Below the pieces are notes generated by a model, which made no database searches, was not told where the DNA came from, and worked only from the letters and a program-made list of their open reading frames with translations. A program made the translations under genes and the position numbers. 64,000 bases of DNA, taken from IMG/VR virus record IMGVR_UViG_2767802241_000002, positions 77,281-141,280 of that record. The stretch is one strand, 5' to 3'. Position 1 is the stretch's first letter. Each line of letters starts with the position of its first letter. Positions 28,113 through 34,442 of this stretch are shown one piece after another. The DNA is from a virus. Taxonomy: Duplodnaviria > Caudoviricetes.

Positions 28113-28969
28113 GCCACTATGCAACGCTAGCTAGCTTGGGGAGAGCGATCGCTTACTTCCCCCAGCTTGGCATTTATTTAGGTAATCCATTGGCAGGTAT
28201 TTTCTTAAGCCAGTTAATTTATTGGCATGATAAAACTGAGAATGAACTTGGGGTTTATAAGACTTCAGAGGAGTGGACAGAGGAAACAGGACTGTCTTAC
28301 AGACAGCAGGCAACAGCACGCACATTGCTCAAAAAATTAGGTCTTATAACTGAAACTGAAAAACGTTTAGAACATAAATTGTACTTCAAACTCAACATAA
28401 ATAAGTTTGATCTGTGGTTTGAAAACTGTACTAATTTTAAGCGAATTGGCGAACAACAAAAATGTAATTCGCGAGATGCGGATAGTGAAACTCCCGAACG
28501 ACGAAAACGCAATTCGGGGGAATACGAAAGCGCAGTTCGGGGGGATACGGATGCGCAATTCGTTATACACAAGATTACTACAGAGAATACTTCAAATATA
28601 TCTCTCTTAGCGAATGAGCAAAATTCGACTGAGTCAGATTCGCGTTTTGCAATAGATTTAACCACTGCGAATACAAGATTAAAAATGCGAGGTTTGCAAG
28701 AAATCACTCAGGCTGAGCTCAGTGAGCTTTTGGATGCGATGTATTTGGAATATGGGCATCGTGGTGAGATGGTAAAAAACCAAGTACTAGGGAAGTTGGT
28801 GCAATGGGTAGATCGTAAGCAAAACACACCTCTGATTACTGGGACTAGGAAAAGCCAAACATCACGATCAACAGGCGCATTGAACCGCAATGTCAATGAT
28901 GCATGGGCTAATCAACCACGGTATCAAGGACCAGTTGAGCACACTGAAATACCGGAGGATTTTATCTGA
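28109..28969 (+). CDS. Replication initiator
   Basis: 'LSQLIYW...YKT.EEW.EETGLS' wHTH; precedes the DnaC-like gene; contains internal repeats. Confidence 0.8.
   Translation: MSHYATLASLGRAIAYFPQLGIYLGNPLAGIFLSQLIYWHDKTENELGVYKTSEEWTEETGLSYRQQATARTLLKKLGLITETEKRLEHKLYFKLNINKFDLWFENCTNFKRIGEQQKCNSRDADSETPERRKRNSGEYESAVRGDTDAQFVIHKITTENTSNISLLANEQNSTESDSRFAIDLTTANTRLKMRGLQEITQAELSELLDAMYLEYGHRGEMVKNQVLGKLVQWVDRKQNTPLITGTRKSQTSRSTGALNRNVNDAWANQPRYQGPVEHTEIPEDFI
28459..28562 (+). repeat. Iteron-like repeats (phage origin)
   Basis: Four imperfect copies: AAATGTAATTCG, AAACGCAATTCG, AAGCGCAGTTCG, ATGCGCAATTCG. Confidence 0.6.
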
Positions 28970-29724
28970 TGAATGCAATCTCTCTAATTAACCAAGGTTT
29001 TCAACAAACCCAAGAATATTGCGCAACACATCAAGTTGCAAAGGTTCAAGCTGGATCACATCAAATTTGCCCTAAGTGCGCCGTGATTGAAGTTGAATCA
29101 AATAACAGAAATCGTCAGGCGGAAATTGATCGCATGGTTCGTGAAAAACATTTCTCAGGTGCCATGCTTCCAGTGCGTCATGCCGACTCTGGTTTTAAGA
29201 ATTACATAATTAACCCAAACAACCTTGGTCAGGCGAATGCAAGAAGCCAATGTGTGAATTATACGAAATCGATTGCTGCAGGCGTTAAATCGAATTTAAT
29301 CATGGTTGGTAGTACTGGGACGGGTAAAACCCATTTGGCGGTTGCCACGGCGCGCACATTGCTCAACAAAGGCATGTTTGTACGCTACATCACAAGTGAA
29401 GAGCTAGCCCAGCGAATCATGAATGCTTGGGATAGGGACAGCAAAGGTCAATCAGAGGAATCAATAATCCATGATTTCACACAGTATCACTTACTTATCT
29501 TGGATGAATATGGGTTACATGATCGTGAAAAACGTCTAGAGCTGGTTCATAAAGTTTTGTATGCACGCTATGACGCTGGTAAGCCAACGATGTTGATTTC
29601 AAATTTCACCATGGCTGATTTACAGAAAGACTTAGGCGACCGTCTTTGGTCTCGTTTTCAGCATGACGGTTTGACGGTGGTTGAGTGTAATTGGGCTGAT
29701 CAGCGAGTGGGGGAAGTGGCGTGA
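28969..29724 (+). CDS. DnaC/IstB-like helicase loader ATPase
   Basis: GSTGTGKTHLA, LLILDE, ISN and DRL.SR motifs. Confidence 0.9.
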   Translation: MNAISLINQGFQQTQEYCATHQVAKVQAGSHQICPKCAVIEVESNNRNRQAEIDRMVREKHFSGAMLPVRHADSGFKNYIINPNNLGQANARSQCVNYTKSIAAGVKSNLIMVGSTGTGKTHLAVATARTLLNKGMFVRYITSEELAQRIMNAWDRDSKGQSEESIIHDFTQYHLLILDEYGLHDREKRLELVHKVLYARYDAGKPTMLISNFTMADLQKDLGDRLWSRFQHDGLTVVECNWADQRVGEVA

Positions 29725-30694
29725 AAGATCCTTTAGATAATAAAACTCTCGATTGGTGTGAAGAAATTACAAAAGGTGGTTTGAATGAGTTGGCTCTTTT
29801 CGCAGGCGCTGGTGGTGGAATACTCGGATCGCATCTCATGGGATGGAACACAGTCTGCGCAGTTGAACGTGATGCCTACGCCGCACAAGTTCTGGCGCAA
29901 CGACAAAACGATGGAATTCTCAAGCCTTTCCCGATTTGGTCTGACGTTACAACTTTTGACGGAAAGCCGTGGCGAGGAATTATTGACGTTATATCTGGCG
30001 GATTTCCATGCCAGGACATCAGTTCGGCCGGAAAGGGTGCTGGAATCGATGGGGAGCGCTCAGGACTTTGGTTGGAGATGGCGCGAATTATCAGTGAAGT
30101 ACGACCGGCATTCGTGTTCGTGGAAAACTCACCAATGCTTGTGGGAAGAGGACTTACCAGAGTCATTGGTGATCTTACCCAAATGGGGTATGACGCAAAA
30201 TGGGCTCGTCTTTCAGCATCCAACTTTGGAGCGCCCCATCAACGCGATCGGCTCTGGATTGTTGCCCACACCCAAGGCGTCAGATCACAAGAACAGAACA
30301 TCACCAGCAGATTTCAATCGCAAATCGCCCGGACTAAGCGCAATAGTTCATACATGGCCGACACCCAAAGCATCAGATTGGAACAAACGCGGCAAAGTCA
30401 GTGCAGATCCACGCAATGGTTTACCGGGTGCGGTGATGAATTTTCCTACTCCAACAGCATCGGATGCAAACAAGTGGAGCAACGAGTCTCTGGAGGAACG
30501 CAAAGCCAAGGGCAGACAAGTGCGACTCAATACAGCGGTATCACCCCAAGGGGGAGCTGGTGGCATGTTGAACCCGACTGGGTCGAGTGGCTAATGGGGT
30601 GGCCCATCGGGTGGACAGACTTAAAGCCATTGGCAATGGGCAAGTTTCAGAAGTGGCAAGAAGCGCATTTGAAATATTAGGCGGTGCAGCATGA
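29721..30694 (+). CDS. C5 cytosine methyltransferase, large polypeptide (1-bp deletion near 30575)
   Basis: LFAGAGG, GGFPCQD, ENS and HQRDR motifs. Motif X (DRLKAIGNGQV) lies in another frame ending at TGA 30692-94, which overlaps the next ATG. Confidence 0.8.
29785..30680 (+). CDS. Nested alternative-frame MTase polypeptide (TRD + motif IX)
   Basis: 269-codon nested ORF with three PTP(K/T)ASD repeats. Restoring 1 bp gives LNPDWVEWLMGWPIGWT. Confidence 0.65.
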
Positions 30695-30915
30695 TCCATC
30701 AAAAACAATTAGAAAGCGCGGCATTGGCGGCGGAAGTTGAAAAGTTTTTAGCGAAGGGTGGGAAGGTCAAGCAGATCGTCAATGAGCCTGTCAAGGTTAA
30801 ACATGGCACAAGCGATCAGTATAAAAAGCGCAGTTGTCGTTGTGAAAAATGTATGGCTTGGGCGTTGAAAACTGGCGTTATTAAGACGACAAAATTAAAA
30901 GGGACTAAGGCATGA
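30691..30915 (+). CDS. Small Zn-finger-like phage protein
   Basis: 'HGT...Y....CRCEKC'. Confidence 0.65.
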   Translation: MIHQKQLESAALAAEVEKFLAKGGKVKQIVNEPVKVKHGTSDQYKKRSCRCEKCMAWALKTGVIKTTKLKGTKA

Positions 30916-34365: not shown

Positions 34366-34442
34366 ATACCTATAGCTCAGTTGGATAGAGCATCCGCCTT
34401 CTAAGTGGGTGGTCACAGGTTTGAATCCTGTTAGGCGCGCCA
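34366..34442 (+). tRNA. Degenerate tRNA-Arg(TCT)
   Basis: TAGCTCAGTTGGATAGAGCA D arm, CTTCTAA anticodon loop and GCCA end; mismatched acceptor stem and TTTGAAT T-loop. Confidence 0.65.

Follow-up and report, generated by a model that had tools for sequence, protein, structure and literature searches.

M.EcoHK31I was reportedly described by Lee, Kam and Shaw in 1995 as a heterodimeric C5-methyltransferase. According to the available parts of two publications (PMC2836561, PMC3404938), this heterodimer of Escherichia coli HK31 (YGGCCR) has its beta chain in another frame, nested inside the alpha gene; alpha carries motifs I to VIII, motif X and a region predicted to be a target-recognition domain (TRD), and beta carries motif IX. 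The enzyme needs both chains, expressed separately, and N-terminal truncation of beta weakens their association (PMC2836561, in the part available). M.AquI (CYCGRG) is another two-chain C5-methyltransferase, with motifs I to VIII on one chain and motifs IX and X on the other, as stated in the accessible text of PMC3404938. Here we analyze a gene at positions 29721 to 30694 of a 64,000-nucleotide (nt) stretch of DNA from a tailed virus (Duplodnaviria; Caudoviricetes; positions 77,281 to 141,280 of IMG/VR record IMGVR_UViG_2767802241_000002), the whole of which is hereafter called the window. An earlier note on this DNA had taken the gene for a dual-frame, two-polypeptide C5-methyltransferase in the manner of M.EcoHK31I, whose alternative-frame beta supplying motif IX is in print as the note had it, to go by the same parts of the two papers (PMC2836561, PMC3404938).

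In our reading, to which we assign a probability of about 0.72, the gene is an orphan C5-cytosine methyltransferase of an Acinetobacter-type temperate prophage and belongs to a family, spread over thousands of phages, in which two chains are encoded in two frames, the window copy being broken. The two-chain, two-frame organization is strongly supported by the comparative evidence, albeit not at the protein level. Within the family, about 0.9 kb of DNA would be read in two frames. Alpha, comprising motifs I to VIII, a loose linker of about 100 residues and the motif X helix, would form the catalytic large domain that binds S-adenosylmethionine, and beta, read one base further on and comprising an N-terminal part under weak constraint, between one and five xPTP modules and motif IX, would form the small domain that recognizes DNA. 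By analogy with M.EcoHK31I, the two chains would associate into one enzyme protecting phage DNA. The layout with its conservation, the switching of selection between the frames and the domain content of alpha are demonstrated here; translation of both chains, their binding, the reading of the target by the modules and the biological role are what we infer.

Two frames in the window and in its relatives

The gene as it stands in the window is made up of the following features.

29721..30680, plus strand: frame A open reading frame (ORF; alpha', 319 amino acids [aa]), GTG start, stop at 30678-30680, motifs I to VIII and linker
29773..29779, plus strand: putative Shine-Dalgarno-like site AAGGTGG, within alpha, 5 nt upstream of the beta ATG at 29785
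29785..30594, plus strand: frame B ORF (beta', 269 aa), in the +1 frame, ATG start, ending in MLNPTGSSG and a stop
29796..30266, plus strand: alpha catalytic region, spanning motifs I, IV, VI and VIII
29796-29819, plus strand: motif I, LFAGAGGG, frame A
29997-30023, plus strand: motif IV, GGFPCQDIS, frame A
30123-30134, plus strand: motif VI, ENSP, frame A
30240-30266, plus strand: motif VIII, QRDRLWIVA, frame A
30262..30564, plus strand: three beta modules, predicted target-recognition region, with heads LPTPKASD (30262), WPTPKASD (30355) and FPTPTASD (30442)
30267..30569, plus strand: alpha linker of about 100 junk-like residues, frame A, overlying the beta modules and seemingly in need only of staying open
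30573..30577, plus strand: site of the lost base, a CCC run at 30573-30575 followed by GA, one base longer in relatives
30576..30680, plus strand: motif IX and beta tail (DWVEWLMGWPIGWTDLKPLAMGKFQKWQEAHLKY, then a stop), now in frame A and joined to the alpha linker
30578..30694, plus strand: motif X segment (LGRVANGVAHRVDRLKAIGNGQVSEVARSAFEILGGAA, then a stop), frame C, out of reach of every ORF in the window

Motifs I to VIII, the +1 frame of 269 codons and the three PTP(K/T)ASD repeats, on which the earlier note had built, are thus all present where it had placed them. The GTG of frame A at 29721 shares bases with the TGA of the upstream gene (GTGA), and alpha' matches the Pfam family PF00145 at residues 25-202 (E = 1.2e-38) and TIGR00675 (E = 1.1e-28; 100.8 bits, cutoff 100.65). 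Frame A thereby has the marks of a C5-cytosine methyltransferase, motifs I (FxGxGG), IV (PCQ, with the catalytic Cys), VI (ENV/ENS) and VIII (QxRxR) of a Rossmann-type large domain, which a motif X helix (GNxV) would complete. Past the linker, frame A goes on as EPDWVEWLMGWPIGWTDLKPLAMGKFQKWQEAHLKY to its stop. Beta' consists of an N-terminal part lying over the alpha catalytic domain and the three PTPxASD modules, and is cut off ahead of motif IX. It has 3848 homologues at E<=1e-3, with a Pfam domain in 0 of the 120 listed; family searches of Pfam and NCBIfam with beta returned no family, and phrog_1008 ('DNA methyltransferase') matches beta' residues 60-235 (profile positions 31-214 of 329; E = 1.2e-20). 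Frame C reads DRLKAIGNGQVSEVARSAFEILGGAA up to its stop; its motif X part (30614-30694) includes DRLKAIGNGQV, and its TGA (30692-30694) overlaps the ATG at 30691 of the next ORF.

Relatives of the gene carry both frames in full. Two full-length overlapping ORFs are found in each of four relatives from Acinetobacter, Salmonella, Pseudomonas and Ralstonia phages, of which only alpha is annotated in ABMM1 and S9-5 and only beta in phPA-G and Gerry. Among 80 viral loci found through beta, 78 have the ATG start, and in 69 of these 78 alpha bears motifs I, IV, VI, VIII and X and beta bears motif IX; the other nine comprise four with motif X on beta, one running off the contig end and four falling outside the strict motif patterns. 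In the 80 viral loci, open stretches of the third frame span just 17-53 codons. As a check on this beta-chosen set, 80 bacterial loci were chosen via alpha alone, 78 of which contain GGFPCQ. In 70 of these 78 loci the beta frame is open along 95% or more of alpha, and in every one of the 78 along 88% or more; motif X lies on alpha and motif IX on beta in 75. The hosts include Pseudomonadota, Verrucomicrobiota, Planctomycetota, Chloroflexota and others. At E<=0.001, a search with the beta profile retrieved 38,594 representatives of clusters at 50% identity, of which 22,188 remained at E<=1e-10 and 5,925 at E<=1e-30. A DNA search of 36 same-genus species representatives gave no match, a weak sample, given that protein-level relatives exist in other Acinetobacter genomes.

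The double openness exceeds chance, as judged by synonymous-codon resampling with the flanking codon usage of each locus in the 33 loci having at least 300 flank codons. For the beta frame to stay open over the alpha N region, the median probability was 0.007 (3.9 stops expected), and for the alpha frame over the beta C region it was 0.000 (6.6 stops expected). An ATG for beta is retained by 135 of 142 loci. It arises from an Asn codon of alpha, which is written AAT in 132 loci and AAC in none, and AAT even in 32 of the 38 loci with a GC content of at least 0.58, i.e., against codon bias.

Selection alternates between the frames along the gene. Isolated substitutions in 50 phylogenetically independent pairs were classed by their effect in each frame. 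In the N region, 975 substitutions were silent in alpha and changed beta (350 expected), compared with 164 of the reverse kind (331 expected); over the modules and motif IX the respective numbers were 53 (152 expected) and 430 (142 expected), and in the last 25 alpha codons 131 (49 expected) and 22 (40 expected). The rate ratios were 0.10 in the module region and 0.15 in the motif IX region, both beta-protected, and 4.8 at motif X, which is alpha-protected. These classes indicate that purifying selection guards alpha through motif VIII, beta through the modules and motif IX, and alpha again at motif X, the frame not protected in each segment being much less constrained.

The two chains also add up to one enzyme. 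An alpha model built on locus L007 (69 sequences) reached a predicted template modeling score (pTM) of 0.67 and was confident at residues 20-190 and in a C-terminal helix at 310-335, with a predicted local distance difference test (pLDDT) score of 31-50 over 200-305. Residues 20-331 superimpose on M.HhaI 10-327 with Z scores of 15-16.5 (about 190-208 of 327 residues aligned), Foldseek matches the model to M.HhaI at E = 4.9e-11, and residues 16-179 of M.HhaI are hit by the alpha profile (E = 1.1e-18). The motif X helix (pLDDT 81-86) aligns to the C-terminal end of M.HhaI. As far as the model goes, alpha fits a large domain lacking the small domain. The variable region and motif IX, which lie between motifs VIII and X, are both present in another frame, in the half that the Pfam model stops short of. 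In the single 391-aa chain of Mycobacterium phage WillSterrel, residues 20-160 match the alpha profile (E = 3e-24) and residues 197-357 match beta profile positions 159-282 (E = 1.4e-11), so that alpha and beta tile the chain and together make up one ordinary C5 enzyme; the three beta modules of the window align to the three LLPTP modules of this mycobacteriophage enzyme.

Four layouts occur among the relatives examined: full overlap (most loci), nested beta, motif X on beta, and a single chain (actinophages). In most loci the two starts lie 4 nt apart (NTGAATG) behind one purine-rich site, and across 142 loci the alpha start at that place is ATG in 68, GTG in 38 and TTG in 14. The window and L007 have alpha starting 64 nt upstream of beta, with a common 21-aa N-terminal extension. 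Motif X is missing from alpha in L081 and L083, where alpha ends soon after motif VIII, and in L041 and L047, where it nevertheless exceeds 300 codons; beta in these four loci, 360-460 aa long, runs through motif IX and a long spacer to motif X. The 440-aa beta P0067 has motif X at its end too.

The module region varies among close relatives. Among 45 pairs whose N-region DNA is 93% to <100% identical, the module regions are less than 60% identical in protein in 19, often differing in length, which is the pattern left when a region is swapped like a cassette among nearly identical genes. L009 and L011, and likewise L088 and L090, are such close relatives, with differences in this region alone. 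Past the first, each locus has 0 to 4 xTP heads (110 loci). Within the window, the three modules are 41-48% alike over 90 nt, which marks them as old units and not recent duplicates. Of the suggestion in the earlier note that repeated TRD-like units may give variable or multiple specificities, variable specificity agrees with the cassette-like exchange in 19 of 45 pairs, and the step from unit to specificity, and with it multiple specificities, stays conjectural. In a seawater metagenome run (X2), hundreds of contigs match only the gene ends, 29778-30263 and 30534-30695, and joints skip 330-570 bases of the gene middle, which is what would be seen if the ends were common to many relatives and the module regions differed.

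The missing base at 30573-30575

The window copy departs from its relatives by a single base. Compared with Acinetobacter phage ABMM1, the sole frame-changing gap in the stretch is one base (CCG-ACTGG). At the LNPxW-VEWLMGW junction, NPxW is in frame with W[VI]EW.M in all 144 related loci bearing the latter pattern, and the window is off by one. One extra C stands behind 30572 in the contigs, about 90% alike, of all three sequencing runs from other organisms, L007 reads AACCCCGAT at the site (CCCC versus CCC in the window), and the closest intact beta, P0002 (85% identity), has LNPDWVEWLMGWPIGWTDLKPLEMDKFQKWQEAHF in a single frame. There is no second lesion: all three segments (beta as far as MLNP, the tail with motif IX, and the part bearing motif X) are undamaged and closely resemble P0002 and L007. 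The proposal that adding one base at about 30575 would restore both frames is accordingly upheld by the ABMM1 gap, the 144 of 144 loci and the extra C in the three runs.

Being one base short in the CCC run swaps the C-termini of the two frames: alpha runs into motif IX, beta stops before it, and motif X becomes untranslatable. The window ORFs as they stand therefore lack the layout in which alpha carries motifs I to VIII and X and beta carries motif IX, since motif IX lies on alpha and motif X is stranded; a translated chain bearing motif X is found in the relatives, at the alpha C-terminus, and not in the window. Phase variation at the C run was considered and rejected, the run being only 3-4 bases long and unconserved (CCCCGA, CCCAGA, CCCGGA and CCCGAA in relatives). 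Read by eye, neither junction has a canonical slippery heptamer by which ribosomal slippage could rescue the window copy.

Most likely, the gene in the window was inactivated recently, and we hold the one-base deletion to be genuine with good confidence. The genome is a single 3.74-Mb contig (completeness 100). A genome of the same genus has 88 long ORFs with an orthologue at >=60% identity; 86 of these map as one unbroken match covering at least 90% (38,623 aa, about 116 kb), and the other two have no out-of-frame partner. With no frameshift over 38,623 aa, fewer than about one indel error would be expected in 39 kb. The dual-frame, two-polypeptide methyltransferase of the earlier note thus finds its support in the relatives, through layout, selection, the conserved ATG, the alpha model and tiling, and does not extend to the window copy itself, which is most likely inactive.

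Alternative explanations and opposing evidence

The same segments could in principle be joined in one polypeptide by two programmed frameshifts, following the alpha frame to motif VIII, shifting +1 into the modules and motif IX, and returning for motif X. The constrained segments taken in order do rebuild a single-chain enzyme, and natural single-chain relatives exist. However, frameshifting requires neither an open beta frame upstream nor an open alpha frame in mid-gene, yet both are kept, and the beta ATG is held against codon bias. Moreover, the alpha WIVA strand and the beta LLPTP head share nucleotides, so that one chain cannot hold both, and the sequences read have no conserved slippery sequence at either junction, no systematic scan having been made. 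M.EcoHK31I, for its part, works as two separately expressed chains (PMC2836561, available part). We give such a route very little credence. A further alternative is a real beta with an internal start, close to the conserved WGM methionine (about 30190) and in the manner of nested genes like that of M.EcoHK31I, the 135 open codons upstream being a by-product of the alpha sequence. This would agree with N-region selection that mainly protects alpha, with beta N-terminal conservation that is partly the +1 reading of alpha motifs, and with Paenibacillus larvae phage DevRi, which has upstream stops in the beta frame and a nested beta about 200 nt inside alpha. It sits poorly with the upstream ATG in 135 of 142 loci (AAT, never AAC), with a median chance openness of 0.007 per locus, with variants whose alpha ends after motif VIII and which keep a full-length beta from the same ATG, and with the Shine-Dalgarno-like site preceding ATG 29785 in the window; we regard an internal start as highly unlikely.

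The broken state of the window copy could itself be an assembly error, the strain carrying one more C at 30573-30575 and the gene being an intact, ordinary two-frame member. The base lies in a homopolymer, CCC compared with CCCC in L007 and the three runs, and the single 3.74-Mb contig suggests long reads; no source-strain run was found, the four runs examined holding only relatives about 90% alike or metagenome fragments. A run of 3-4 bases is, however, a weak error hotspot, no frameshift split appears in the 88 orthologous long ORFs (116 kb) of a genome with completeness 100, and an identical 269-aa truncated beta recurs on a separate Logan contig. Deviating copies also exist, 3 of the 78 alpha-chosen GGFPCQ loci lacking the standard layout. 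We consider an error rather unlikely and retain a genuine deletion in a two-frame gene.

Several observations nevertheless weigh against a two-chain family with a broken copy in the window. Folded alone, beta gives a poor model (pLDDT 50.5, pTM 0.23); its profile returned one chance-level match among solved structures (E = 0.32), its language-model recognition score is low, and its Atlas matches are unnamed viral clusters only. The labels motif IX and motif X come from position, structural alignment and consensus, the Pfam model covering the N-terminal half only. The N-terminal ~155 residues of beta evolve mostly as if alpha alone counted, and some conserved beta words, SWKT among them, are simply the +1 reading of alpha motif VI (FVENSP for SWKT); this part of beta may be little more than a leader. 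As for the deletion, the lost base falls in a homopolymer, where sequencing errors also occur, the exact 269-aa truncated beta lies on a 1143-nt Logan contig that is possibly not independent in sample or technology, and the best sequencing run searched for source-strain reads held only 0.09 of the sampled words.

Genomic setting and comparison with known systems

The methyltransferase gene stands between two ORFs that overlap it at its ends.

28969..29724, plus strand: DnaC-like helicase loader (phrog_50, E = 4.8e-62), its stop overlapping the alpha GTG
30691..30915, plus strand: 74-aa ORF with weak PHROG matches (phrog_15673, E = 2.1e-10), its ATG overlapping the stop of the motif X frame

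The gene comes after a CI-like repressor gene on the minus strand and O-like and DnaC-like replication genes, and is followed by small ORFs and then an HNH endonuclease. Among these neighbors there is no adjoining restriction enzyme that could serve as a cognate endonuclease. In the 74-aa product the cysteines follow a CxC...CxxC-like pattern, and HNH-related PHROGs match it weakly; before the deletion, its ORF was probably translationally coupled to alpha, because its ATG overlaps the stop of the now stranded motif X frame. A tRNA-Arg gene (anticodon TCT) lies at 34366-34442, in the early/late junction region of the prophage. At 0.507, the GC content of 29721-30694 is above that of the genome (0.416) and of each flank (about 0.42), and genes of Salmonella and Pseudomonas phages share 76-80% DNA identity with this gene. 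Dual coding may keep the composition off that of the host, or the gene may have arrived recently. Orphan methyltransferases of phages protect phage DNA from host restriction and, by analogy, such protection is the likely role here.

Long genes that overlap on one strand are considered uncommon in bacteria and bacterial viruses and are suppressed by gene callers; in this family it is usual for one frame to be annotated and the other left out or labelled 'hypothetical'. Given the 5,925 clusters found by the beta profile at E<=1e-30 and the 22,188 at E<=1e-10, many 'hypothetical proteins' of phages may turn out to be the part of a methyltransferase that recognizes the target. On a more tentative reading, phages could quickly re-aim, or multiply, their protective methylation through the xPTP cassettes of beta, and the TRD of M.EcoHK31I-like enzymes would lie on beta and not, as in print, on alpha. 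Likewise, with start codons usually 4 nt apart behind one ribosome-binding site, the choice of start would set the alpha:beta ratio. That the family is among the largest complete same-strand dual-coding cases in bacterial viruses (judged without comparison to others), that start-codon choice sets the alpha:beta ratio and that the xPTP units are exchangeable specificity cassettes is a tentative proposal, which we consider doubtful. In any case, the family is a natural system for studying how two proteins share a sequence with constraint alternating between frames, and suits questions of subunit ratio by start-codon choice and of target change in phage methylases. For the source genome, the prophage methylase is probably inactive.

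A description of a wide phage family of this kind was not found in a full-text search, which returned only the literature on M.EcoHK31I and M.AquI. In the available text of PMC3711429 the gene is not mentioned, and that of PMC10810198 concerns an MT-A70 enzyme with an adjacent, non-overlapping partner. Three further candidate sources on the overlap were set aside, their available content being Rz/Rz1 or figure legends (PMC4684702, PMC11054321, PMC11445585).

A single-chain counterpart from actinophages, WillSterrel gp71 (391 aa; L167, 613-1788), has motifs I to VIII, three LLPTP modules, LNPxFxEWMMGWPxGW and GNGVVP in the same order as the two-frame genes; it differs in having all parts in one frame, LNPAFPEWMMGWPTGW being followed by GNGVVP on the same chain, and stops in its +1 frame. 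Over motifs VI to VIII, that +1 frame reads as a beta-like YDPDTRSWK...WPKTGYMSGG...SLLPTPETG, up to the first LLPTP head, and then stops. The stretch may be left over from an ancestor with two frames, or it may be a shadow of conserved alpha codons. The multispecific C5-methyltransferases of Bacillus phages (SPR, phi3T, rho11s) are single chains with tandem variable units between motifs VIII and IX, each unit of such enzymes giving one specificity. The tandem short variable units are a likeness to the modules described here, for which the link from unit to specificity is, unlike in those enzymes, a conjecture.

In DevRi, gp56 and gp57 share with the window gene a second coding sequence (CDS) in another frame, with xTP modules and LNPDWVECLMGFPIGWT, and differ in that beta begins about 200 nt inside alpha with stops upstream in its frame. 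GenBank annotates both (L168, 603-1658 and 805-1509) as DNA cytosine methyltransferase, the inner CDS bearing the note 'Not called by any program'. A DevRi-related paper lists two such genes and, in the part available, does not discuss the overlap (PMC6070908). M.AquI shares its split with 4 of the 78 viral relatives (L041, L047, L081, L083). Their arrangement is, as far as the sequences tell, an M.AquI-like split with alpha wholly overprinted, and it differs from M.AquI in that alpha is still fully overlain by the N-terminal part of beta; most of the family, and the window to judge by its segments, put motif X on alpha.

The likeness to M.EcoHK31I, compared by description only, lies in a beta chain in an alternative frame of the alpha gene, as in the window and its relatives; a search of plasmids with beta returned 10 records, M.EcoHK31I not among them. 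Whereas the beta of M.EcoHK31I is nested, beta here extends over almost all of the gene, its start usually lying 4 nt behind that of alpha. The predicted TRD of M.EcoHK31I is placed on alpha in the accessible literature; here it is beta that bears the variable modules under constraint, the middle of alpha being relaxed and unstructured. Finally, M.EcoHK31I is part of a restriction-modification system, and the present gene stands as an orphan in the early operon of a prophage. By description, this family differs from M.EcoHK31I in the near-complete overlap, the placement of the starts, the constrained variable modules on beta and the orphan status.

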